32,469 bases of DNA. Origin: Candidatus Aminicenantes bacterium. GTDB taxonomy: Bacteria; Acidobacteriota; UBA4820; DSQY01. Every line of letters starts with the position of its first letter. Position 1 is the stretch's first letter. The notes below the pieces were generated by a model, which was given only the letters and a program-made list of their open reading frames with translations, made no database searches and was not told the DNA's origin. Both the position numbers and the translations under genes were made by a program. Positions 3,673 through 31,395 of this stretch are shown piece after piece. The stretch covers positions 1 to 32,469 of the forward strand of contig DAHXMK010000022.1 of assembly GCA_027365515.1 (NCBI GenBank), given 5' to 3'.

Positions 3673-3703
3673 CATATTTTTCTAAAAGCCGTATGATGTA
3701 ACC

Positions 3704-3814
3704 CGCGCAGGGAGTGCGGCCTGGCGAGCTTCTTATTGAGGGCCGCTGAGAGGCGTCTCGCGGACGCCAACCCCTTGAACCTGAACCGGGTAATGCCGGC
3801 GGAGGGAATGCGTT
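3704..3814 (+). promoter_or_regulatory. TPP (THI-box) riboswitch aptamer upstream of thiC
   Basis: The sequence contains GGGAGTGC...CTGAGAGG...ACCCCTTGAACCTGAACCGGGTAATGCCGGCGGAGGGAA, which matches the conserved THI-element core (CUGAGA, ACCUGAuCnGGnUAAUnCCnGCGnAGGGA). It is closed by a short P1 helix (cgca 3706-3709 with tgcg 3809-3812). It sits about 80 nt upstream of the thiC start. Confidence 0.9.
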
Positions 3815-3816
3815 GA

Positions 3817-5691
<1,875 letters not shown>

Positions 5692-11922: not shown

Positions 11923-12108
11923 ATGTTGGACCGAGTGCTCCGAGGAATTGGTGGGCTCTTAGTGGTTTTGAGCGTGACGCTTGGATACTTCGTTCATCCG
12001 GCCTTCTATTTTTTTACGGCGTTCGTAGGGTTGAACTTGTTCCAGTCCGCTTTCACTAACTGGTGTCCCATGATGCAGCTTCTTAAGAAAGCTGGCGTAT
12101 CACATTGA
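11923..12108 (+). CDS. DUF2892 (YgaP-like) small membrane protein
   Basis: ATG 11923 follows AAAGGAGGG. The 61-aa product has two hydrophobic helices and the characteristic FVGLNLFQSAFTNWCPM motif. Confidence 0.8.
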   Translation: MLDRVLRGIGGLLVVLSVTLGYFVHPAFYFFTAFVGLNLFQSAFTNWCPMMQLLKKAGVSH

Positions 12109-12255
12109 CAACAAGGGATTTTATCACCCTAGCCTTGGTCCTTGGGGCTTGGTACATTGTCAACCGTTTCCTGCTGCCCAGAATGGGCGTAAGTACTTGA
12201 AGTGCCAACGCATGCGAGGTCGAGTTCGACCCCACGAAAACAGGGAGGAAAGATA

Positions 12256-12582
12256 ATGGCTCACAACGTAAGTGAAATCACCGACGCGACCTTTCAGACG
12301 GAAGTCCTCGATTCTTCAACGCCTGTCGTTGTTGACTTTTGGGCGCCATGGTGCGGCCCGTGCAGGATGGTAGCCCCGGTTATGGAGGAATTGGCGGGCG
12401 AAATGGCTGGACAGGCCAAATTCACTAAAATGAACATAGATGACAATCCCACCACTCCCAATCGGTTTGGCATAATGGCCATTCCAACGCTGCTTGTTTT
12501 TAAGGGCGGCCAGCTAGTCGGCCAGCACGTTGGTGCTCTTAGCAAGCCGGCCCTGAAGGGGATGATACAGAAGTCGCTGTAA
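12256..12582 (+). CDS. trxA: thioredoxin
   Basis: ATG 12256 follows GGGAGGAAAG. It carries the WCGPC active site in a thioredoxin of typical length, about 108 aa ([17 protein letters not shown]...[10 protein letters not shown]). Confidence 0.95.
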
Positions 12583-12597
12583 CTTTAAGGACTAAAG

Positions 12598-12807
12598 ATG
12601 CCTATATATGAGTACCGCTGCAGTGATTGCGGCGTAAAATTCGAAAAATTGGTGTTTAAGAAAGACGCGCCCGTCCCGGCGTGCCCATCGTGCAGGTCAG
12701 CGAAGGTCGCCAAGTTGATGTCCGTCCCGTCAGTTGGAGGATCGGCGGGGACCGCTTCATGTGGCGCTGCACGATCTGGTGGAGGGTGCGGCAGCGGCTT
12801 TAGTTGA
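12598..12807 (+). CDS. FmdB-family zinc-ribbon protein
   Basis: MPIYEYRCSDCG...CPSCRS shows paired CxxC motifs, followed by a Gly/Ser/Cys-rich tail. This is typical of the FmdB / CxxC_CxxC_SSSS family. Confidence 0.85.
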   Translation: MPIYEYRCSDCGVKFEKLVFKKDAPVPACPSCRSAKVAKLMSVPSVGGSAGTASCGAARSGGGCGSGFS

Positions 12808-12864
12808 GCGGGTTGAGTCTATCGGGCGCCGTGAGCGCCTGTGATGTTTCTGAAGACGAAAAGG

Positions 12865-12892
12865 GGCCCCTGAAAGTAGAGGGGCCTTCTTA
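12865..12892. terminator. bidirectional rho-independent terminator candidate
   Basis: GGCCCCT (12865-12871) pairs with AGGGGCC (12880-12886) around an 8-nt loop. It is followed by TTCTT on the + strand and preceded by GAAAAGG, which gives a T-rich run on the - strand. Confidence 0.6.
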
Positions 12893-13295
12893 ATATAAAT
12901 GGCCCAAGGTACGTACGTCTGATAAGATATCTTATGTCTATATATTGGCGCTGACAGGGCTGTGTCCTTCAGCATTAACTCTCCCGGTCTCTCGCTTCGT
13001 AATCTCGGCAATTCGTGCAGACCACTTCGAACATTAACCATCACGGCGAATGCCCTGATGCATTACCCTGCAACATAAGCCGGTTGTCAGACGTTTTATC
13101 ATATTTCAGATCATATTGATAGCCGTTTAATATAACCATTTCAACTAATTATTGGATATTTATTGATTATACTGGTAAATAATCGGCAATATCTCATGAA
13201 AGAAAAGATATTATTGTTAGCTCAGTAACGAGTAATATCGTGTGTATTTGCTTAGTTATCAATGTATAATCAATTCTTACTAAGTAATATACTGG

Positions 13296-13913
13296 CTAAA
13301 GACGACCAATTTTAGGCAGCAATTCAACTAACGAGGCAATACCTTTTTGAATAACGGGCAAGGATGATGAAAGGAGGGACCCTGGAGTCGCGGCCACTCC
13401 CCTACTCTCATTGACGATAACTTCATCGGGGGCTACTTCCATGCAGCTCTTGCCAGATGGCCAGGGCCCAAAAAGCGTTGTCACTATGAATTCTGCGAGG
13501 CTTATCGCTCCAATTGATCCTCCAGATGAGGCGGTTTCAAGAAGAAATTGGGCAACCTCAGGGTGAATTGTACGAGGATTATTCATGTCACCAAAATTGG
13601 TGATCCAATTCTTGACGGCGCCTTGGCCGCCGGGCAAGACAACGCCATTAAGGAGTTTGGGCGATATCTCTTTTAACAAGAACAGCTTGCCTTTCACTAA
13701 GCGAGACGCTTCTGTATATTGCGACCGAGACTGCTCTGAAATATCAAGCATAGTTGAATGGTCGCAAACTTGGAATTGCGGCTCCTCGATTGATAGATAC
13801 ACGACGTCATAGCCCGCTCTCTGTAATTCCAGAGTGGCAAGGACGGCCTCATGCACGTCACTACCGTCAAGAGCCCCGCAGCCATTTAGAAGAAGCCCGA
13901 ATCGAAGCTTCAC
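13296..13913 (-). CDS. ElbB-like DJ-1/PfpI (class I glutamine amidotransferase-like) family protein
   Basis: The N terminus GLLLNGCGALDGSDVHEAVL and the VLPGGQGAVKN motif match my memory of E. coli ElbB (ILSGCGVYDGSEIHEAVL, VPGGFGAAKN). The start overlaps the nrnA stop (ATGA). G+C is lower than in neighbouring genes. Confidence 0.7.
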   Translation of the reverse strand: MKLRFGLLLNGCGALDGSDVHEAVLATLELQRAGYDVVYLSIEEPQFQVCDHSTMLDISEQSRSQYTEASRLVKGKLFLLKEISPKLLNGVVLPGGQGAVKNWITNFGDMNNPRTIHPEVAQFLLETASSGGSIGAISLAEFIVTTLFGPWPSGKSCMEVAPDEVIVNESRGVAATPGSLLSSSLPVIQKGIASLVELLPKIGRL

Positions 13914-14908
13914 CGCTCGGCCGTCTCGCTTTCTAACGCCGACACAGCCTCTCGTATCAATAGCTCTTCGGCCTCATCTATTGGGATATCCAATCGGACG
14001 CCGGCGGCATTTTGGTGACCGCCCCCACCCCAGGGCGAAACGAAGCGATCAATAGGGAAATTCCCTCTTGAGCGGCATGAGACTTTTGTGTGGTTATTCC
14101 CTAACTCCTTAAAAAAGAAGCCAGCTACGACACCATCAACCTGTACTGTAAAATTAACAAGATCGTCCGCGTCTTCCATCCTGGCCCCGACCTGCCGGAT
14201 CATCTCATGGCGCATCTCTATCCAGGCGACCTTTCCACCAGGCGAACGCCGGAGAGTAGAGAGAATCGCGCCGGTAAGCTTCAGCCGCGTGGGGCTTTGG
14301 CGTTCGAAAATTTCGCTGTATACCCTCTGCGGTTCGACGCCCGCTGAGAGCAACTCCGCCGCAAGCCGGTGAGTTTTCGGGGTAGTGCTTGGATACCTGA
14401 AGCTGCCCGTGTCTGTAAGAATAGCGGCATATAAAGGCTCAGCGATTTCGACGCTGAGCGGAACATCGAGATGATTGATTACCTCCCTAACAATCGCCCC
14501 CGTTGCGCAAGCATCCTCGTCTATGAGGTAAGTTACTCCTTTTTCCTGGTCCAGCCTGTGGTGATCTATGACGATGATCCCTTCACTCTGGCGCGAAAGA
14601 GGCAGAACCGCCCCGAGCCTTTCAAAGGCCCCCATATCAACCACGACGGTCCACGCTGATCTGAAGAGCTCCTCTGGCGCTTGAATATCCCTGGGAGTGA
14701 CTATTTCGGCCGGTTCTTTGAGCAAAAACCTAAGGTTTTCCGGGACTTGGGTGGGATTGATCAGTGCCACTTCCTTGCCGAGGCCTCTAAGCGCCCTCCC
14801 CAAAGCGAGCTGGCTTCCAATGCCGTCTCCGTCACTGGACATATGTGTCGTCACGACGAATTTCTCACAAGAAGCTAATTTCGCAACCACATCTAGAAGC
14901 TGGTTCAT
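13910..14908 (-). CDS. nrnA: DHH-family phosphoesterase, NrnA-like oligoribonuclease / pAp phosphatase
   Basis: Diagnostic motifs are HMSSDGDGIGS, VIDHHR (DHH) and the DHHA1 motif GGGHQNAAG. The length is 332 aa. Confidence 0.85.
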   Translation of the reverse strand: MNQLLDVVAKLASCEKFVVTTHMSSDGDGIGSQLALGRALRGLGKEVALINPTQVPENLRFLLKEPAEIVTPRDIQAPEELFRSAWTVVVDMGAFERLGAVLPLSRQSEGIIVIDHHRLDQEKGVTYLIDEDACATGAIVREVINHLDVPLSVEIAEPLYAAILTDTGSFRYPSTTPKTHRLAAELLSAGVEPQRVYSEIFERQSPTRLKLTGAILSTLRRSPGGKVAWIEMRHEMIRQVGARMEDADDLVNFTVQVDGVVAGFFFKELGNNHTKVSCRSRGNFPIDRFVSPWGGGGHQNAAGVRLDIPIDEAEELLIREAVSALESETAER

Positions 14909-14994
14909 GGCTCCCCTTCCTTTAACCTCTTATTTTAGCAGGGAATTGTACGCCATGCAAAGAGAACCATACACATAACCACACCAACAACCGC

Positions 14995-15558
14995 CTAGAG
15001 AGCCCCAAGCTTCGCTAGAAGCGCGTTGAGTTCCGATTCCAATGTATCAATTGAGCCATTATTCTCAAGAATATGATCGCTCAGCTTGAGAGTGGCCTCC
15101 AGCTGCTGGCTTGTTGGATCGGATCCGTTCTCTTCGGCCTCCTTCTGAAGAAACGCGTCGAGCCCGGATGTGGCATCTCCAGTACGTCCTCTATCAACCG
15201 CCCGCTGATAACGGACCTCTGGCGATGCGGTAACCCCTAAGAGCATGAACCCTGCCAGCCCCACGCGCAATGCCTGCACCTCTGCAGGGTTGCGAATCGA
15301 ATCCACCACGTCACGTGACCCCAGTCTCGGCAATATCCTTAAAGCCAAAGCGGATGGGCCGCCTTCCCGCCTGATCCTGTTTCCAGTGGCGATCAAGTGG
15401 TCACGGCCAGTGGTTAGGCCTTCAGAAAGAGCCTCCTCCCTTACGATGTCGGAGAGGCTGTGGTATTTGAATCCGCGGCTCTTCAGCATCGCGGCGACCG
15501 TTCCCTTTCCTGAGGCGTTCGGGCCGGTCAGGCCAATTATGAGAGGGGCGCCCGTCAC
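14995..15558 (-). CDS. P-loop nucleotide kinase-like protein (dephospho-CoA kinase / UPF0200-like)
   Basis: GTG 15558 overlaps the upstream stop (GTGA), with GAAGG about 8 nt upstream. The N-terminal Walker A is IIGLTGPNASGKGT. At 187 aa it is small-kinase sized. Substrate is unknown. Confidence 0.7.
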   Translation of the reverse strand: MTGAPLIIGLTGPNASGKGTVAAMLKSRGFKYHSLSDIVREEALSEGLTTGRDHLIATGNRIRREGGPSALALRILPRLGSRDVVDSIRNPAEVQALRVGLAGFMLLGVTASPEVRYQRAVDRGRTGDATSGLDAFLQKEAEENGSDPTSQQLEATLKLSDHILENNGSIDTLESELNALLAKLGAL

Positions 15559-16835
15559 TGGATTGCCTTCTTTTTGGCCGTGGCAAGCTGAACCAGCAGA
15601 GGATTTTCGGGCTCTCTTGCCGCCGCAATATATTCTGGCAGAGCCATTGGAGAATACCCCATCATCTGGTAGCTCCTACCCAAGAAATACGAGGCCTTGG
15701 ATTGGAGTGATGTAGTGTAGGGCAAATTTGTCAGCAGGTCGGAAAGTTCCCTGGAAGAGTCCTCGTACTTTCCCAGCCTGTAGTTGCAGTAGCCAAGCCA
15801 ATAGGTGGCGTCTCCAGTATAGAGGTCAAGCGGCTGTTCCTTGACGAAGTTTCTCAAAAGAGGGGCTGCTTCCTCCTCCCGCTGCTCCCTCAGGAGAGAA
15901 ATCATGCCCAGCAGGTTGTCTCGATTGGCGGTTTTGTCCTTCAGGTAAGCGGAAGCCCATTCACGGTAGCTTAAGTTCAAAACAGCCTCATCTTCACCGC
16001 ACGCCTTAAGCGCTGACTGCCAGTCGGCACCCTTTTGAAGGGAGCCCAGTATCAGTTGAATTGCCTCGTCTCCACGCCGCGCCTCGATGCTTCTGAAAGC
16101 CCAGTAGCCGTTGAGCCACTGGCGCTCGCGGCCCGTCCCAAGGCCCGAGATTGCCTGAATCGGGGGGACGCTCAGCGAAAGAAGCGACCGGGTCTCATAG
16201 ACATGGCCAAAATCAGTGAGGTTCAGAACCAGGCCGGCTTGAAACCATTCAGGCGCTGCTGAATACCCTGGACAATTTTCATCCAACAATATCTGGCAAA
16301 GCGCCGCTGCAAAAAGATCTCTGGCGGCCCACCATTTCAGCATTATCGGTTCTACGGCAAATTGCGCTTTCCACCACCCTGAACCGCCTTTTGCCACCGA
16401 GAATGGCTGCTTGAATGAACAGGCCTGATAATCGGATGGATTAAATTGAGCTAGGTTCTGCGCCGAAGGGTAAAGGCCGGAACCGTCCTTCAAATCCTTT
16501 ATGGCTTCAACCAACGCTTCATCAAGATCGCCAAGCGCTCTGGCTGCATCGCCGTCACCGGCAAACCTTCCCGAGTAGGCCTCCACCTTCAATCCTGCCC
16601 ATGACATCGGGCGCTCAGGCTGGGCGGCAATGGGCTTTGCAGTTGGCTCGGACTTCTCCTGTTTTGCGTTTGTCTCAGGCCGCGCCACCCTTTCAATTCT
16701 TGGCGGCGCGGGCTGGTCCGGAATAAATAGATAAGCCAACTCTTTTCTGTGGCGCCAACCCACAAGCCCAAGGCAGGCGATGAGAACGAAGAGGCCCAGC
16801 AATAGCGCGAAGAGGGTTCTCCACAACCGGTTCAA
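15555..16835 (-). CDS. membrane-anchored protein with C-terminal TPR repeats
   Basis: I favour TTG 16835, which has GGAGG 4 nt upstream and overlaps the BatE-like stop (TTGA). This gives an N-terminal TM helix WRTLFALLLGLFVLIACLGLVGW. The C terminus is TPR-like (YWLGYCNYRLGKYEDS...). The 562-aa track ORF extends antisense-like through the upstream gene and I do not believe it. Confidence 0.7.
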   Translation of the reverse strand: MNRLWRTLFALLLGLFVLIACLGLVGWRHRKELAYLFIPDQPAPPRIERVARPETNAKQEKSEPTAKPIAAQPERPMSWAGLKVEAYSGRFAGDGDAARALGDLDEALVEAIKDLKDGSGLYPSAQNLAQFNPSDYQACSFKQPFSVAKGGSGWWKAQFAVEPIMLKWWAARDLFAAALCQILLDENCPGYSAAPEWFQAGLVLNLTDFGHVYETRSLLSLSVPPIQAISGLGTGRERQWLNGYWAFRSIEARRGDEAIQLILGSLQKGADWQSALKACGEDEAVLNLSYREWASAYLKDKTANRDNLLGMISLLREQREEEAAPLLRNFVKEQPLDLYTGDATYWLGYCNYRLGKYEDSSRELSDLLTNLPYTTSLQSKASYFLGRSYQMMGYSPMALPEYIAAAREPENPLLVQLATAKKKAIQ

Positions 16836-25294: not shown

Positions 25295-25840
25295 ATGGCC
25301 ATTCGCCGAGCATTACTTTCCGCGGGAGTCGCCCTGACAGTCTTAACCGCAATGACGTTCTTTTTCCAGCGGGCTCGATCCCCGTTGCTTGGCCAAAGCG
25401 CCGATGCCCAGACTGTTACTTCCAAAGGAGATGCACCGATGAAATTTCCGGTGACTAAGAGCGACGCCGAGTGGAGAAAGATACTCACCCCAGAGCAGTA
25501 CGAGGTCACGAGGAAAGGCGGAACCGAATGCGCCTTCAGGGGAGCTTACTGGAACTTTCACGGAACCGGAGAGTTCGTCTGCGTCTGCTGCGGCAACCCG
25601 ATCTTCTCGACCAGCGACAAGTTTGACTCGGGGACCGGGTGGCCGAGCTTCACGAAGCCCCTCGCCGAAGGCAGGGTCCTGACGCGCCAGGACGATTCAC
25701 TTGGAATGGAACGGACCGAGGTGCTCTGCGCCAGGTGCGGCGCCCACCTCGGCCACGTCTTCAATGACGGCCCGCCTCCCACCGGCCTCAGGTACTGCAT
25801 CAACTCCGTCGCCCTGAAATTCGTCCCAAGCAAACCTTAG
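25295..25840 (+). CDS. msrB: peptide-methionine (R)-S-oxide reductase MsrB with an N-terminal export signal or anchor
   Basis: ATG 25295 follows GGAGG. The hydrophobic N terminus ends in ADAQ. Two zinc CxxC pairs are present (CVCCGNP and CARCGAH). The catalytic Cys is in RYCINS, and the GTGWPSF motif is present. Confidence 0.9.
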
Positions 25841-25904
25841 AAGGGTCACCACCAAGCCGCCAACACACCAAAGAGTGCGAAATAGCGAAGCAGAGACGCG
25901 CGGT

Positions 25905-26237
25905 TCATTTCAAGAGCCGCACGATTCTCTCTATAGTCTTTAGCCCCGTCTCCGGCGTCCCCCCGGCGATCAGCATGAGATTCGTCGTCCTCGCCGCAGG
26001 CTGGCCGTTTTCAATCGCCGTGTAGGCGTAATCGGGATACGTCCCCATCCTCATCGAGGCATTTGGCTGCAAGCTCGCAAGCCACGGCTCCGCGCCCGCC
26101 TGCGCCATCGTCCCCTCGCCCCACGCGCACAGCCCCTTCGCCTGAACCGCCCCGATCACGAACCCCGGCGCGCTGCCTTGTTTTCTGAAGGTGCCCAGCC
26201 CGATGATCGCACCGGTCAGGTTCCACTTGTTGCCCAA
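25905..26237 (-). CDS. hypothetical protein (110 aa, TTG start, no obvious SD); possibly a gene remnant
   Basis: Codon third positions are strongly G/C-biased, like the host genes, which argues for real coding sequence. An in-frame stop lies directly upstream of the TTG. I recognised no family. Confidence 0.4.
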   Translation of the reverse strand: MGNKWNLTGAIIGLGTFRKQGSAPGFVIGAVQAKGLCAWGEGTMAQAGAEPWLASLQPNASMRMGTYPDYAYTAIENGQPAARTTNLMLIAGGTPETGLKTIERIVRLLK

Positions 26238-26243
26238 TCAATG

Positions 26244-27332
26244 TTATGGACAGCGCCTGCTATAGCGCTCGAATTCCTCTTTATCGGGCCACACATCTCT
26301 ATATAGATTATTTGAACCATCTGGATTGGTGCATCCTTCGAGATGTATGTCCAGCATATTGTTGTTGCGTAGCCCAATGACGATGTTCAACCAATAATAT
26401 CTGCCGTTCAGGCTGTCCCTGGCGTATAGGTATTTTGATACTCCGGCTCCCTTGTTTCCCTCCACTCTCATTTTCCAGTGCAGGCTATCTGTATAGCCGT
26501 CAGTAGGTGCGTAGCTTACATAATCATCATCCGTTTCACGCAACAAGAACCTGCCATTGCCGTGAAGATTCATTGACCATTCCACTGGAGTGGCGGACGG
26601 CGTTGCTTTGCTCCATCCCATGAATATCATTTCTTCCGCAGCGGCCATTCGCGCATTGTCCACGCGAATAAGTAGCTCGCCTTCCGGCGTGGCGCCTCTG
26701 ATCGAATGAATGCCGACTGTCGTGCCTCCAGCAGGGGCCGCCAACGCCACTGGGCTTGCCGGATCAAAGGCGAAGATGTTCACGGCTTCAGCCGGGAATT
26801 CCTTGTATGGGGTGGAGAATTGAAGCAGCTTTGGAGGTGGATCGTGACGGATCACTTTTAGTTGAATAGGCTGAGGAATATCAACGAGCTTGGGCATTGG
26901 AACTGTCCCCATATCTCTCAGGCTCTTCGAAAAGACATAACGAGCAGTAGACACCTCCCGCAGAAGCGCTAACCCTGCCTTTCTTCCTGGCTTATCTAGC
27001 AGGGCAAGACCCTCATCGTTGGTTGTGACGCGGTAGCATTCATCAGCCGTCCAGGAAAAGAGCCATAAAAAGGTGTGCAACCGAGTCAGCGCGATCTTAA
27101 ACTCGTAACGCTTTGCTGGTCGCCCATCTTGATCAACCATCTTGATGGCGAGATGCATCGGCCTTGCGTCCCTGTAAAACGCAGCGGTGTACTCTTCCCT
27201 GACCGTGCGCTGTTTCTTCGCATCCGCACTTGATGAACCACACCCTACTGCTAAAAGAATCAGCGGCATAATAGTCAGTAATGCGCCACGTGCAACTCCG
27301 GCGACGCATTTATGGCTGAGGTTTATTGGCAT
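26244..27332 (-). CDS. putative lipoprotein of unknown function
   Basis: ATG 27332 lies 9 nt after GAGGAG and 13 nt downstream of the hydrolase stop. The signal peptide has a lipobox-like LLAVGC. G+C is low (sample lines count about 42-48%). I recognised no family. Confidence 0.7.
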   Translation of the reverse strand: MPINLSHKCVAGVARGALLTIMPLILLAVGCGSSSADAKKQRTVREEYTAAFYRDARPMHLAIKMVDQDGRPAKRYEFKIALTRLHTFLWLFSWTADECYRVTTNDEGLALLDKPGRKAGLALLREVSTARYVFSKSLRDMGTVPMPKLVDIPQPIQLKVIRHDPPPKLLQFSTPYKEFPAEAVNIFAFDPASPVALAAPAGGTTVGIHSIRGATPEGELLIRVDNARMAAAEEMIFMGWSKATPSATPVEWSMNLHGNGRFLLRETDDDYVSYAPTDGYTDSLHWKMRVEGNKGAGVSKYLYARDSLNGRYYWLNIVIGLRNNNMLDIHLEGCTNPDGSNNLYRDVWPDKEEFERYSRRCP

Positions 27333-27345
27333 AGCGATCTGCTCC

Positions 27346-28422
27346 TCATTGTGATAACAAGGCCACAACCTTCTCCCAGTATCCTTGGTGTCTCGAATAC
27401 GTCCCCCGCAATTCCCCGCTATGGTAGATATGATCATCCGTATACTCAAGTGGCGGAGCCTGTAGGTTGAACGAATCCTCCGCCCTAAACGGCCCCACCG
27501 TTTGCGCAGTGGCACCTAGAGGAATCCCCAGGAACTGCGCGTAGCTTGAGAACATCTTGAACCTTTGGCCAACGTCGTCAACGTCCAATGCCTGGCCTGT
27601 TGGATGGCATGTTATAACGCTAGGGCCACCGTATGGATCGGGTATTGTCACGCATTCGTTCAGCCGGAACAAGTGTTCACTCCACACGTATTGATACCGC
27701 CCTGCAACATCTAGACGCCCTCTGAACAAGTCATTGTCAAGTTCGAATACGCTTTCCCTGCGCTCACTAAGCTTATTGCATATTTCAGTCACGAATGCGT
27801 TCAATCCAGGGTGGTCATATAGCCACCAGTCTAGGACCCAGTATTTCTGCAACGTTGTAACGTCATCACCCATGGCCCAATCCGCAGGGTTATAGAAATT
27901 GACCCACTTCGCTGCCATCTGTCTTGCCGGCTCAAGATACGGCAATTCGCTTGCGTAGCCATGCGGGTAGTGGCCCATCACATCGTCGTTGTCGTATGCC
28001 CCACGCTCTGGAATCCGCTCTTTGTATCGCGGCACATCCGCCTGGTAATAGCTTGCCGAAATAGCGGCCTGACTTGCGATATACACCTTGACGAGCGGTC
28101 TTGGAGCGCTTGTATCAAGTCCTGCCTCCCGCAGAGCTTCGCCCGCTACAATGTTGCCCTGGCTGTGGGCAAGCAAATACACACCAGCGGCCAAATGGTT
28201 GCCATTCTCTCGCACCAGAAGGTCTTTGAGGCCCGTTCCTGACAACCACGCGTTGTATTCACTCTTGTCGAAATCCAGCGCGCTGAGGCTGCACGGCCAG
28301 TCATATTCGCCAAACCGCCCCTTGTAACCTGACCACCAGAGGCGCTTGTATGCTGTTTGCGCGAATCTTGGCTTCTCCCAATCCTGCACATTGAACCCAT
28401 GAACGAAGATGACATAAGGCAC
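27346..28422 (-). CDS. alpha/beta-hydrolase-fold protein (lipase/esterase-like, DUF900-like), no signal peptide
   Basis: The beta-1 strand YVIFVHGF and the nucleophile elbow LLAHSQGN (GxSxG-type) are present. I favour GTG 28422, which has AGGTGG 8 nt upstream. The maximal ORF extends to TTG 28569, but that part lies inside the inverted-repeat-bounded RAYT unit and overlaps the transposase gene. Confidence 0.7.
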   Translation of the reverse strand: MPYVIFVHGFNVQDWEKPRFAQTAYKRLWWSGYKGRFGEYDWPCSLSALDFDKSEYNAWLSGTGLKDLLVRENGNHLAAGVYLLAHSQGNIVAGEALREAGLDTSAPRPLVKVYIASQAAISASYYQADVPRYKERIPERGAYDNDDVMGHYPHGYASELPYLEPARQMAAKWVNFYNPADWAMGDDVTTLQKYWVLDWWLYDHPGLNAFVTEICNKLSERRESVFELDNDLFRGRLDVAGRYQYVWSEHLFRLNECVTIPDPYGGPSVITCHPTGQALDVDDVGQRFKMFSSYAQFLGIPLGATAQTVGPFRAEDSFNLQAPPLEYTDDHIYHSGELRGTYSRHQGYWEKVVALLSQ

Positions 28423-28493
28423 GTCTGGCGCCACCTGCGGCGTGTACGCGAATCCCTCAGGTTGTGCAGGCAACGCTTTGGGCGGATTTGTAT

Positions 28494-29239
28494 TTCCGGG
28501 GACACAATACTCATTTCTCCTCTGTTCTCTTCTTTCGCCCTGGTTTCTGGGGCTTGAGGGTTCTTCCAAGGGCTACCTCCAGTTTCTCGACGAACCCGGC
28601 GGAACCCAGCGGCCGTCCTGTCCTCTCACCGCGCCGGATGGCTTCGGCTTCTGCTTCCGCCATACCGCCTTTCAGCAATGACGCCCACTCCCCACAGTCC
28701 CTCAGAGGCTTCGCAGAACGTATGAGCGCGCCATACTCTCCGCTCAGATGAGCACGGGCGCTGCTCCACGGCCACTGTTCCGGACGCTTGCATAGCTTCG
28801 CCCGCACAGCGTTCAACTCGATATACCGCGCGCAGGCAATCGCATATCTTCGCTCCATCGGAAACGAGGCGAACCTCCCCTGCCACAGGTACCCCCGCCA
28901 CCGTTCCCGGAAATTGATTAGCCTCGTATAGCGGCGATGAACTTCTCCGACTGCCCTGGCAAGACCGTCAGCACTGTGCGGCACCAGCATCAGATGGACA
29001 TGGTTCGGCATGAGGCAGTAGGCCCAGACATCCACCTTGTGCCTTTTGCACCATGCGCCAAGCAGATCCAGATATGCGCTATAGTCGTCGTCACAGAAGA
29101 ACACCGGCTGACGCCTGTTCCCGCGCTGCGTCACGTGGTGAGGGTACCCGGAAGCAACCACTCGCGCCAGTCTCGCCATGAAGCGATCCTATCCCTACCG
29201 CCACTGCATTGTCAACATATCAGTATTGTGTCCCCGGAA
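28494..29239 (-). mobile_element. RAYT / IS200-like unit 1: Y1 transposase gene bracketed by 18-bp perfect inverted repeats
   Basis: ttccggggacacaatact (28494-28511) is the exact reverse complement of agtattgtgtccccggaa (29222-29239). I verified this base by base. Confidence 0.75.
28511..29179 (-). CDS. REP-associated tyrosine transposase (RAYT) / IS200-family Y1 transposase
   Basis: It has the HUH motif (PNHVHLML), the catalytic Tyr context (ARYIELNAVRAKL) and the family N terminus YHVTQRGNRRQPVF. Confidence 0.85.
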   Translation of the reverse strand: MARLARVVASGYPHHVTQRGNRRQPVFFCDDDYSAYLDLLGAWCKRHKVDVWAYCLMPNHVHLMLVPHSADGLARAVGEVHRRYTRLINFRERWRGYLWQGRFASFPMERRYAIACARYIELNAVRAKLCKRPEQWPWSSARAHLSGEYGALIRSAKPLRDCGEWASLLKGGMAEAEAEAIRRGERTGRPLGSAGFVEKLEVALGRTLKPQKPGRKKRTEEK

Positions 29240-29271
29240 TCCCAAACGTGAATCGAAAACCACATTCATCG

Positions 29272-29625
29272 TCACTTGCCTTGTTGCCCCAGCCGCCAGC
29301 GGGGGGCGAGAACTACACCCTCATCCTGTGCTACCTTCTTGCCAGTCTTAGGAGAGATGCCACCCGGCCAGCCTATTTGCACTTCAAGAGGATCACCCTC
29401 GTGTCCTTCCAAGGAAACTTTAAAGGATGTCTTATCCCCCATTCGGGTGTACTCCGTACCTCGCAGCCCATGATTCAAGACGGTAAACCCCGCCCCAGCC
29501 TCGACGGCCCCCTCCTCGCCCTCGACGATGAGCGTATTCTCCTTGTTCGGGTCCGCGTACGCCCAAATCTTGCGTTGGTCAACAGTAGGAACGTCCTCTT
29601 TGAAGGATACGGGGTCACATCTTGC
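29272..29625 (-). pseudogene. start-less coding fragment between the two RAYT units
   Basis: The minus-strand frame is open from the TAG at 29629-29631, which lies directly inward of the unit-2 repeat core, down to the TGA at 29272. It reads DPVSFKEDVPTVDQRKIWAYADPNKENTLIVEGEEG...GQQGK. No ATG or GTG lies near its 5' end. The track offers only an internal TTG (68 aa). Confidence 0.35.
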
Positions 29626-30576
29626 TTTCTAGCAGTTTCAGTTCGCATCGCGCTCTGCCAGTTTGAGAAGCCTTCCGGCGGTGGCGTAGTGAACGCCTAG
29701 GTGTTTCGCGATCAGAGCAAGCGTGTATCCGTGAATCACGTGCGCCTCGCGCACTTGCGCGGCCAAGCCGGCTTTTCCGTCCGCCTTCTTCCGGTCTACA
29801 ATCTCTCCCACCGGAGGCCTTCCCGCCACACGCTGAAAACGCTGGTGCTCCTTTACTTCCCGTCTGGCTTCGGCCTTCTCACGCCACGCTTCCACGAACT
29901 CCGCCGTGCCCAGCACCATCTGAGCCGCCACTCGCCCAAACGGGCTCTCCTTTTGCCGCAATCCTTGCGCCACGTACCGCCTGTAGAGCCTTTGCGCTTT
30001 CGCTTTCTCTCGGTGAAACTGCGAAAGCACCCACGTCGTGCTCAGATACGGCGGACGCTTCACCTCTCCGGCCGTCGCCCGATAACTGCTCCACCACCAA
30101 TCACCAGCGCGTTCCACCATTTTGGCCCGAACGGGGTTCAGCACCACGTAGCGGCACACCTCCAGCAAATAGCTCTCTTTCTGCACTAATACAGCCTTGA
30201 AACGCCCCTGGAAAAGATGCCCGCAGCGCCGGTGCCGGCGGTTGAACCCCTGCGTATACTCTCCGTTGATCCGTTGCATGCCCAGAGAAAGGTTGGCTTT
30301 CGGCGTCTCCACCAGCAGGTGGTAATGGTTGTCCATCAAGCAATAGGCATGAATGATGAACCCGTACCTGGACGCTCCGGCCGCCACCGCTTCAAGAAAC
30401 GCGGCCCGGTCCCGCTCGTCAAGAAATACCCGCTGCCGCGCATTCCCGCGCGACGCCACATGATAAACCGCCCCAGGGAATTCAATCCTCAGTGGACGCG
30501 CCATCGCAGATTCCCTCTCATCACCCTTACGAAATAATCATAGCACCAAGAATGCTATAAAGCAAGATGTGACCCC
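29611..30576 (-). mobile_element. RAYT / IS200-like unit 2: Y1 transposase gene bracketed by 18-bp perfect inverted repeats
   Basis: ggggtcacatcttgcttt (29611-29628) is the exact reverse complement of aaagcaagatgtgacccc (30559-30576). A second copy of the latter lies at 30605-30622. The match extends to about 24 bp with one mismatch. Confidence 0.75.
29638..30504 (-). CDS. RAYT / IS200-family Y1 transposase with a C-terminal helix-turn-helix extension
   Basis: It has the HUH motif (DNHYHLLV), the Tyr context (CRYVVLNPVRAKM) and the N terminus YHVASRGNARQRVF. The C-terminal segment GYTLALIAKHLGVHYATAGRLL looks like an HTH, possibly DnaA-domain-IV-like. Confidence 0.85.
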   Translation of the reverse strand: MARPLRIEFPGAVYHVASRGNARQRVFLDERDRAAFLEAVAAGASRYGFIIHAYCLMDNHYHLLVETPKANLSLGMQRINGEYTQGFNRRHRRCGHLFQGRFKAVLVQKESYLLEVCRYVVLNPVRAKMVERAGDWWWSSYRATAGEVKRPPYLSTTWVLSQFHREKAKAQRLYRRYVAQGLRQKESPFGRVAAQMVLGTAEFVEAWREKAEARREVKEHQRFQRVAGRPPVGEIVDRKKADGKAGLAAQVREAHVIHGYTLALIAKHLGVHYATAGRLLKLAERDAN

Positions 30577-30633
30577 AATTCGTTTATGACCCCAATTCGT
30601 TTATAAAGCAAGATGTGACCCCAATTCGTTTAT
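30556..30633. repeat. short direct-repeat array (32-bp unit x2, with an extra 18-bp partial unit)
   Basis: tataaagcaagatgtgaccccaattcgtttat occurs at 30556-30587 and 30602-30633. tgaccccaattcgtttat occurs three times (30570-30587, 30587-30604, 30616-30633). Confidence 0.9.
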
Positions 30634-30647
30634 TTATAAAAAATCAT

Positions 30648-30672
30648 AAGCGGGAGCACCGGGCTCCCGCTT
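30648..30672 (-). terminator. rho-independent terminator downstream of ssrA (potentially bidirectional)
   Basis: A 10-bp stem pairs aagcgggagc (30648-30657) with gctcccgctt (30663-30672) around a 5-nt loop. T-rich runs follow on both strands. Confidence 0.65.
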
Positions 30673-30681
30673 GCGAGTTTT

Positions 30682-31026
30682 TGGTGGAGGCGGCGGGAGT
30701 CGAACCCGCGTCCGGAGAGGTCGGCCAAGGAAGCGTCTACGCACGTAGCCGGTTCCCAATCATTTCGCTCGGCGCCAATGGAGCCGGCAATTCGGCGCCT
30801 CGCTATCCTCAGTAGTCTTAGCCCCGGCGGCTGAGGCGCCCGCCGGAACGCATCCCGCTAGCGACGCCTTGCCGAAACCCGCGGGAGTGATTTCGGGGGC
30901 GTGGCGGCTTACGCCGCCAGAGCCAAGTTGTTGTTGGCTTTTGAGGTTTTCCGGTCGTTTTTCGAGAGCCCGGAACTCGGTGCGCAGCCTCCTCCCGCAC
31001 ATCCCCGTCGAGACCGTTTCGCCCCC
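30682..31026 (-). ncRNA. ssrA: tmRNA (SsrA), tag peptide ANNNLALAA
   Basis: On the reverse complement, the 5' end GGGGGCGAAACGG pairs with the 3' end CGCCTCCACCA, including the G3:U wobble. The T-arm is GGGTTCGACTCCCGCC. The tag reading frame is GCC AAC AAC AAC TTG GCT CTG GCG GCG TAA. The length is about 345 nt. Confidence 0.93.
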
Positions 31027-31043
31027 ACGCGCGTGCAGCCGCT

Positions 31044-31072
31044 AATATATGCCCTGGCGGCGCTCGGGTCAA
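31044..31072 (-). promoter_or_regulatory. sigma70-like promoter candidate for ssrA
   Basis: On the minus strand: TTGACC (31072-31067), a 17-nt spacer, then TATATT (31049-31044). It lies about 17 nt upstream of the mature 5' end, which is consistent with a processed precursor. Confidence 0.45.
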
Positions 31073-31395
31073 GGACTATGAACCTTCGGGAGCGCCCGCC
31101 TTCGGTTGAGCACACAAATCCTCAATAGCTCGAAGAGTTGACCGCGACCGCTAAGACCACGGGGGAAGAAGCCTTCAACTACGGAGGAGCGACGCTCCGC
31201 GCGCTCCCAAGCTCGTCCTGGCTCCGCGCATCCGTACTGAATTCCCCTAGCCGCTGTCCATTTTTCTTGGTGCCGTTCTGTCCCCGTGGCTTGGCCTCTT
31301 CGCTCTTCTTGCTCTTATGAAGGCTCTGCCGGTAAAATGGCCTAGGCGTTGCGGAGAGGCCGCGGCCAATCGTTATCATCATCAGGAGACCGAGA

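Follow-up and report, generated by a model that had tools for sequence, protein, structure and literature searches.

What is encoded by a serine hydrolase gene and a lipoprotein gene that lie together near the tmRNA gene of a bacterium, hard against a transposase? The question is raised by a contig of 32,469 nucleotides (DAHXMK010000022.1, our contig C185; hereafter the window, meaning this whole stretch of DNA) from a metagenome-assembled genome (MAG) of a Candidatus Aminicenantes bacterium (GCA_027365515.1; 2.0 Mb, 424 contigs, 65% complete, 60.4% G+C). The two genes fill positions 26244 to 28569 of the minus strand. An annotation made from the letters alone (the sequence-only reading) had taken them for a horizontally acquired pair, a cytoplasmic-type hydrolase followed by a periplasm-facing lipoprotein, and had suggested a lipase effector with its immunity protein on the pattern of the Tle and Tli proteins of type VI secretion systems (T6SS). 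As judged by comparison with its relatives, the pair belongs to a widespread, uncharacterised two-gene module. We consider it rather probable that it is an orphan cassette of a module composed of a Sec-exported lipase-type toxin and a periplasmic immunity protein.

The hydrolase open reading frame (ORF; 27346-28569, minus strand) runs for 407 codons from a TTG at 28569 and encodes the motifs VIFVHGF and AHSQGN. These motifs, the shared orientation of the two genes and the 13-nt gap between them (27333-27345, minus strand) were all confirmed at the positions first reported. When ten homologues were compared with the window by tblastn, the alignments began between 28413 and 28503 (at 28500 for the closest, P0002) and reached the hydrolase stop codon, while the N-terminal 70 to 380 residues of the same homologues had no match anywhere in the assembly, the window included. 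The 27 residues at the start of the ORF (MEEPSSPRNQGERREQRRNEYCVPGNT; 28489-28569, minus strand) align with no homologue; their codons fall within the left inverted repeat and the 3'-terminal part of a transposase gene, that of the first of two REP-associated tyrosine transposase (RAYT) units, REP standing for repetitive extragenic palindromic. In the family alignment, conserved sequence starts from NPPKALP at 28488, which abuts the outer left end (28487) of the inverted repeat of RAYT unit 1. Relatives have a signal peptide, a variable N-terminal region, a PAD_M-like domain and a conserved YERW[ST]VG segment, all of which are absent from the window protein.

Homology begins precisely where RAYT unit 1, bounded by its inverted repeats, has its outer end; the N-terminal part of the hydrolase has therefore been lost, and on this alignment evidence the window gene is a 5'-truncated remnant of a longer gene. 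Repeat-mediated misassembly is unlikely, since the repeat of unit 1 is present in the assembly only at its own two arms. The earlier statement that the product has no signal peptide holds for the ORF as it stands but not for its natural state: long intact relatives mostly carry Sec signal peptides, so the cytoplasmic look is an artefact of truncation, and an annotation of the window gene as a cytoplasmic hydrolase would be wrong.

What remains of the gene (27346-28488, minus strand) encodes a full DUF900 catalytic domain, as judged from a profile match and the family alignment. Pfam DUF900 (PF05990), a family of unknown function according to a 2024 review (PMC11878206), matches residues 53-154 with 26.0 bits against a cut-off of 20.5, and the match was recovered in a six-frame search of the genome. 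A Pfam scan at E up to 1 returned DUF900 and Abhydrolase_6 only, with no DUF2235, DUF3274, Lipase_3 or PGAP1; among the families put forward beforehand, DUF900 is supported and DUF2235 and DUF3274 are not. Alignment places a catalytic triad at Ser136 (AHSQGN, 28162-28164), Asp230 (NPADWA, 27880-27882) and His383 (HIYHSG, 27421-27423). The three residues are invariant over 19 homologues, and the window copy retains all other invariant positions too. In an AlphaFold2 (AF2) model the alpha/beta-hydrolase core is confident (pTM 0.74), and the triad residues come after the strands at 130-135, 219-226 and 366-368, the canonical order for this fold. The fold search gave only generic lipases, esterases and polyhydroxybutyrate (PHB) depolymerases, with the Acinetobacter LipA:LipB complex at low rank and Tle3/Tli3 among the weak matches (rank 23, TM-score below 0.25). 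A sequence search of solved structures yielded nothing significant for either the hydrolase or the partner family, the only matches being to the pancreatic-lipase nucleophile elbow at E 0.02-0.1. We infer that the substrate is a lipid. Neither protein matched any PADLOC defence family at E up to 0.01, so a role in phage defence is without support.

The second gene, the partner (26244-27332, minus strand), is intact. From its ATG it encodes a 362-aa lipoprotein with a signal peptide and the lipobox LLAVG-C31 (27240-27242) that had already been noticed; the N-terminus, MPINLSHKCVAGVARGALLTIMPLILLAVG-C, read by eye from the sequence, fits the PROSITE-type lipobox pattern. The earlier verdict that its family was unknown stands, in that the protein belongs to no family in Pfam, NCBIfam or PADLOC and has no Lipase_chap/Lif match. 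Its domains are a VDQDGRP-bearing beta-sandwich that resembles transthyretin/CarboxypepD_reg, more beta domains and, at the C-terminus, the family motif NPDGSNNL. A word-index search found one close relative (88% identity) and an exhaustive search 22, including one 56% identical over the C-terminal 252 residues and two full-length relatives at 37-38%; these three end alike at the C-terminus, and the full-length homologues have both termini in common with the window protein. Invariant positions in the family alignment are P58, D67, A275-P276, G279-Y280, N336-P337 and L343. Distant hydrolase homologues, too, are followed by genes of this family, whose members start with a signal peptide, a lipobox or a transmembrane (TM) anchor and share a VDQxGxP beta-sandwich (named carboxypeptidase regulatory-like by some sources), more beta domains, and the motifs APxxGY and NPxGSxNL. 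Judged from sequence and predicted structure, the partner is a member of a new beta-rich, extracytoplasmic family; a fold search with its low-confidence model retrieved no solved structure at E up to 0.001.

A close counterpart of the window pair, locus L001, is 90% identical at the nucleotide level over window positions 27750-26246; both genes are kept, and similarity stops at the partner stop codon. Between the two loci the partner has a dN/dS of 0.155, indicating purifying selection. Synonymous divergence over 26244-27750 is uneven: dS rises from 0.19 in the 3' part of the hydrolase to 0.26-0.32 over the first two thirds of the partner and reaches 0.80 in the remaining third, a pattern that suggests a recombination mosaic.

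The two genes travel together. Matches were found at 277 loci in species-representative genomes, and linkage was counted at 79 of these, which hold 87 hydrolase ORFs. A partner ORF lies directly downstream of 78 of the 87; three reach a contig end, and for six no partner was detected, although one of these (L051) proved to have one on separate inspection. The proposal that the genes form a linked accessory pair is borne out by this count and by a patchy distribution. When neighbouring ORFs were clustered over a wider set of 84 loci, only two families recurred, the hydrolase (84) and the partner (80); the next commonest neighbours were response regulators (11), integrases (11, in groups of 7 and 4) and relaxase/helicase genes (6), and no secretion apparatus appeared as a recurrent neighbour. 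Carriers of the pair include Opitutaceae TAV3 and TAV4, several Verrucomicrobiota MAGs and two genomes of the window's own family. The closest hydrolase, P0002, shares 66% amino acid identity, has 453 residues and no signal peptide, and its gene overlaps by 4 nt that of a downstream partner with 45% identity to the window's; L002 and L003 (66% and 45% amino acid identity) likewise retain the pair. In relatives the two genes often overlap by 4 nt (ATGA), and all pairs examined show either this overlap or a spacing of 13-29 nt. In the window an AGGAG that shares bases with the hydrolase stop codon lies 9 nt ahead of the partner ATG, which makes translational coupling plausible. At one further locus (L007 8799-13674, on a JGI metagenome contig), a hydrolase (P0003) and a 286-aa partner lie between two 328-aa MlaD genes, downstream of genes for MlaE and an ABC ATPase; it looks as if the cassette had been inserted with duplication of mlaD.

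Homologues of the hydrolase are 450-700 aa long where the contigs are short and reach 2750 aa in genomes, the intact ones mostly 1000-2750 aa, and most of the ORFs longer than 1000 aa begin with a Sec signal peptide. The long relatives have variable N-terminal domains (FN3, TSP3, Ig-like, LamG, transglutaminase), followed, ahead of the C-terminal DUF900 domain, by a conserved domain with DANRDG, WxNDDxD and RDLEDFxRL motifs and a weak PAD_M match. With H for the hydrolase, Hs for a short hydrolase without signal peptide and P for the partner, the arrangements H-P-P, H-P-P-P and H-P-Hs-P(-P) were met. A broken hydrolase stands beside an intact partner in L011, L071, L077, G010 and G021, and orphan cassettes, that is, a 5'-truncated hydrolase with an intact partner, are found in the window and in L011, L060, L071, L077, L092, G010 and G021. 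Locus L011 (4425-11095) encodes a 1254-aa protein in which this DANRDG/WxNDDxD pre-domain precedes a hydrolase domain that has diverged; a 323-aa lipoprotein partner follows, and beyond it lie a fragment of an IS110 transposase, a 147-aa piece of a DUF900 C-terminus and a second, intact partner of 364 aa.

In the interpretation that we favour, the first gene, where intact, encodes a giant Sec-exported protein composed of a signal peptide, variable adhesin-like domains, a conserved PAD_M-like domain of calcium-binding type and a C-terminal DUF900 hydrolase with a Ser-Asp-His triad. The second product is rich in beta structure, and its TM anchor, signal peptide or lipobox keeps it attached to the periplasmic side of the inner membrane. 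The hydrolase would act as a lipase- or phospholipase-type antibacterial toxin attacking the cell envelope, and the partner would be the cognate immunity protein, blocking the enzyme in the producer's periplasm and guarding against copies from neighbours. Several features look like signatures of immunity, namely the tandem partners, the H-P-Hs-P arrays, the survival of intact partners next to broken hydrolases and the purifying selection on the partner. In the window, all hydrolase sequence upstream of the catalytic domain has been lost at the outer end of the RAYT unit, leaving a catalytic domain that probably cannot be delivered and an intact, selectively maintained immunity-type lipoprotein in an accessory patch beside ssrA. 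The earlier idea of a lipase effector with an immunity protein survives in this altered form, as a lipase-type toxin with extracytoplasmic immunity; its Tle/Tli form does not.

Alpha/beta-hydrolase toxin domains are already known from polymorphic toxins (Tox-ABhydrolase-1 to -3; Zhang et al. 2012, PMC3482391). Cinquedea, a secreted hydrolase of the archaeon Haloferax larsenii, has been shown to be a phospholipase A that kills bacteria; of its homologues in archaea, 69% match DUF900 (bioRxiv 10.64898/2026.06.10.730825). Through those DUF900 matches it can be compared with the window protein as a secreted alpha/beta-hydrolase that kills bacteria by phospholipid hydrolysis; unlike the module, it is a small protein encoded by an archaeal single-gene unit with no partner gene. 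If the toxin interpretation is right, the module would represent a large family of antibacterial weapons, with its 277 loci mostly in Verrucomicrobiota and some in genomes that carry the labels Lentisphaerota, Desulfuromonadales and Omnitrophota. Sec would be the only export route of this toxin-immunity family and its immunity fold would be new, in phyla from which hardly any such weapons are known, and DUF900 would gain a role. The window would then exemplify the decay of such a module, its delivery part lost at a transposase unit and its immunity-type gene retained.

Set against the polymorphic toxins of the CdiA-CT/CdiI and Rhs-CT/RhsI kind, the module shows both likeness and difference. 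Alike are the large exported multidomain protein ending in an enzymatic domain (in the relatives; the window copy has lost its N-terminus), the small gene for a putatively protective protein immediately downstream, the arrays of 5'-truncated enzyme fragments with intact partner genes, the association with integrases and transposases, and the patchy distribution. The module has, however, none of the RHS, filamentous-haemagglutinin, PAAR, LXG or pre-toxin domains of those systems, and its export apparently relies on Sec only.

A number of points weigh against a toxin-immunity module. Its architecture is the reverse of that of classical polymorphic toxins: the C-terminal hydrolase and the PAD_M-like domain are conserved and the N-termini vary, with L011 as the case in which the same pre-domain is joined to a divergent hydrolase. 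The giant FN3/TSP3/Ig proteins resemble surface enzymes or adhesins as much as toxins, and no known toxin-delivery or pre-toxin domain was found in the relatives. No known immunity fold is matched by the AF2 model of the partner, which is almost all beta and has a low pLDDT of 56. Compared with L001, the final 134 codons of the window hydrolase show a dN/dS of 0.156; selection has therefore acted on the catalytic domain, and some function may persist in the short form. L001 does not extend to the truncation junction and so gives no date for the break. Finally, with the MAG 65% complete, a full-length hydrolase copy or a secretion system could be unassembled.

Some of these points lead directly to the principal alternative, which we regard as possible but distinctly less probable: by analogy with known operons, the hydrolase may be a secreted or surface enzyme, an extracellular esterase or lipase for nutrient acquisition or surface remodelling, and the partner a dedicated helper for periplasmic folding, export, anchoring or control of activity, the window copy being a decaying remnant. 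The model would be the lipase LipA and its foldase Lif in Pseudomonas, Burkholderia and Acinetobacter, where the gene of a Sec-exported lipase is likewise followed by that of a membrane-anchored periplasmic partner. The tight spacing and near-constant order of hydrolase and partner recall lipA-lif operons; adhesin-like N-termini, an enzyme domain that is conserved and not polymorphic, the missing toxin-delivery domains, and fold matches to ordinary lipases, esterases, PHB depolymerases and, at low rank, LipA:LipB all suit an enzyme with a helper. Lif, however, is all-helical, whereas the partner is predicted to be all-beta and has no Lipase_chap/Lif match. A helper would be expected to decay with its client, yet intact partners persist by broken hydrolases in the window and the five other cases named above, and purifying selection acts on the window partner next to a hydrolase with no export signal. 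Tandem extra partners also speak against a helper; to our knowledge, orphan partners and partner arrays are not features of Lif systems.

Two further explanations keep closer to the sequence-only reading. A T6SS phospholipase effector of Tle type with a Tli-type periplasmic immunity lipoprotein would share much with the module, in that Tle1-4/Tli pairs too have a nucleophile-elbow serine hydrolase followed by a periplasm-facing protein or lipoprotein, a likely target in the envelope and tandem immunity paralogues, and Tle3/Tli3 was among the weak fold matches. It is nevertheless very improbable here. The enzyme falls in DUF900 and in none of the Tle Pfam families, and the partner in no described family or solved structure; PAAR, VgrG and Rhs were not found in the relatives, and T6SS genes are not recurrent near the module in the 84 loci. 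T6SS effectors do not need Sec signal peptides, and most long intact relatives have one. The earlier remark that no secretion apparatus is visible was upheld for the window and for the 65%-complete MAG; TssC (VipB) or Hcp was not found in the MAG, nor TssC in five carrier genomes of 2.9-5.5 Mb, and with no T6SS sheath gene in any of them this explanation fails. The other possibility, which we hold to be unlikely, is that the short form is itself functional, as a 407-aa cytoplasmic hydrolase made from the TTG at 28569, possibly co-transcribed with the transposase gene of RAYT unit 1, with a non-toxin role alongside the lipoprotein or in a two-gene defence system. The frame is open for 407 codons with all invariant catalytic residues retained, and a Shine-Dalgarno-like GGAGG (28576-28580, within the RAYT coding sequence) lies 6 nt upstream of the TTG. 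A promoter-like site upstream of the RAYT gene is followed by no terminator before the pair, although the promoter scan yielded fewer sites than expected by chance. Selection on the 3' part of the hydrolase and the similarly short P0002 would fit as well. Against a functional short form stand its first 27 residues, which read through the transposase repeat and are unconserved, the loss of the YERW[ST]VG segment, the placing of the two products in different compartments and the absence of a PADLOC match. On this evidence the exported toxin with its immunity protein remains the best-fitting interpretation, with toxicity and neutralisation as its putative elements.

The transposase units at which the hydrolase ends are two. 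RAYT unit 1 (28487-29246, minus strand) consists of a Y1 (IS200-like/REP-associated) transposase gene at 28511-29179 between 28-nt inverted repeats (28487-28514 and 29219-29246), and RAYT unit 2 (29611-30576, minus strand) of a gene at 29638-30504 between 24-nt inverted repeats (29611-29634 and 30553-30576). The REP-like repeats of both start with GGGG(T/A)CACA. As in known RAYT and IS200-like systems, each unit is a Y1 transposase flanked by such repeats, and the REP of unit 2 (GGGGTCACATCTTGCTTT; window 29611-29634 and 30553-30633) is dispersed, with 9 exact copies in the genome and 17 with at most two mismatches; its gene scores 88.9 bits with the NCBIfam model REP_Tyr_transpos, above the cut-off of 80. 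Unit 1 differs from those systems in that its repeat is confined to its own arms and its gene, at 68.1 bits, falls below the cut-off. The spacer between the units (29247-29610, minus strand) holds a start-less frame of 118 codons. We considered this frame as the lost hydrolase N-terminus and found the idea not demonstrable: N-terminal-domain hidden Markov models matched at E about 1.5-7, a Smith-Waterman comparison with the P0002 N-terminus gave p = 0.38 against shuffles, and there was no Pfam match.

A comparable arrangement occurs in a genome of the same family (G021; locus L121, G021:C35 7200-12560). Three inverted-repeat-bounded RAYT-like (Y1_Tnp) units, 94-96% mutually identical and each about 1030 bp long with repeats of 25-31 nt (TGGGGTCAGGCTTGCGCAATTGCGT), alternate there with cargo segments. 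The first cargo, starting just past a unit's right repeat, is a hydrolase C-terminal fragment of roughly 120 residues with an intact 350-aa partner; the later segments encode a 161-aa TM protein and then a 164-aa protein. The array is an instance of multi-copy, IS-like behaviour of a RAYT-type gene, in which it departs from known RAYT systems, and its cassette mirrors that of the window, but the break point differs and the cassette is divergent. In an Opitutaceae genome (Oleiharenicola; L054 4710-5162), the hydrolase ORF is followed at a distance of about 1.3 kb by a RAYT-like ORF, which apparently lies past the partner gene. A window unit that ends where hydrolase homology starts, the G021 array and the L054 gene together suggest a Y1-transposase-based route to 'disarmed' immunity cassettes. 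RAYT-like units would be active and would repeatedly land at, or recombine with, hydrolase-partner modules, removing the delivery part, keeping the immunity gene and possibly moving the cassettes; we put this forward as a speculation of low probability. RAYT adjacency as a general feature of the module was rejected, and the association is so far anecdotal, since L054 is the only one of 79 other loci with a RAYT-like ORF.

The claim that the pair is compositionally atypical and acquired was right in direction and wrong in its figures. Positions 26244-28569 have 52.5% G+C (hydrolase 53.9%, partner 51.2%) and not the 42-48% first estimated, with seven of 38 sixty-nucleotide lines at or below 48%; EF-G has 61.5% and the RAYT genes about 60%, where about 63% had been given for a sampled line of each. 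The region nevertheless lies at the 3rd percentile of same-size windows of this 60.4% G+C genome, and G+C at third codon positions (GC3), which averages 0.735 over the genome (standard deviation 0.087), is down to 0.59 in the hydrolase gene (8th percentile) and 0.53 in the partner gene (3rd percentile). The hydrolase is found in none of four same-genus and two of 24 same-family genomes, and in the tree the window copy and P0002 occupy a long branch of their own, apart from the same-family copies. This patchy distribution, the tree position, the composition and the place beside ssrA and two RAYT units support the view that this is accessory DNA that moves horizontally. There is neither an integrase gene nor an att repeat, and no ssrA-derived direct repeat of at least 14 nt occurs in 25700-31200; every same-genus contig ends at the tmRNA, which leaves no empty site to compare at the ssrA-msrB locus. 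A 25-nt stretch identical to the 3' end of the tmRNA (window 30682-30706) stands at the start of another same-genus contig (G003:C100:39-63, L027), as the att repeat of an ssrA-integrated island would look.

The accessory patch starts at the 3' end of the tmRNA gene (ssrA; 30682-31026, minus strand), whose terminator hairpin lies at 30638-30682. Downstream from the tmRNA on the minus strand follow this terminator and a small REP array, RAYT unit 2, the 364-nt spacer, RAYT unit 1, the hydrolase ORF, the lipoprotein ORF, a GC-rich ORF of 110 codons and the convergent msrB. Elsewhere in the window, a TPP riboswitch (64.7 bits, 3700-3825) upstream of a 598-aa ORF (3895-5691) appears ordinary. The lowest-G+C stretch, 13001-13500, has 40.4% over its 500 nt, which is below any 2326-nt window of the genome, the sizes not being directly comparable; with 51.5% G+C over 12000-16000 and GC3 values of 0.48 and 0.58 in the ORFs at 13296-13913 and 13910-14908, it may mark a second foreign patch.

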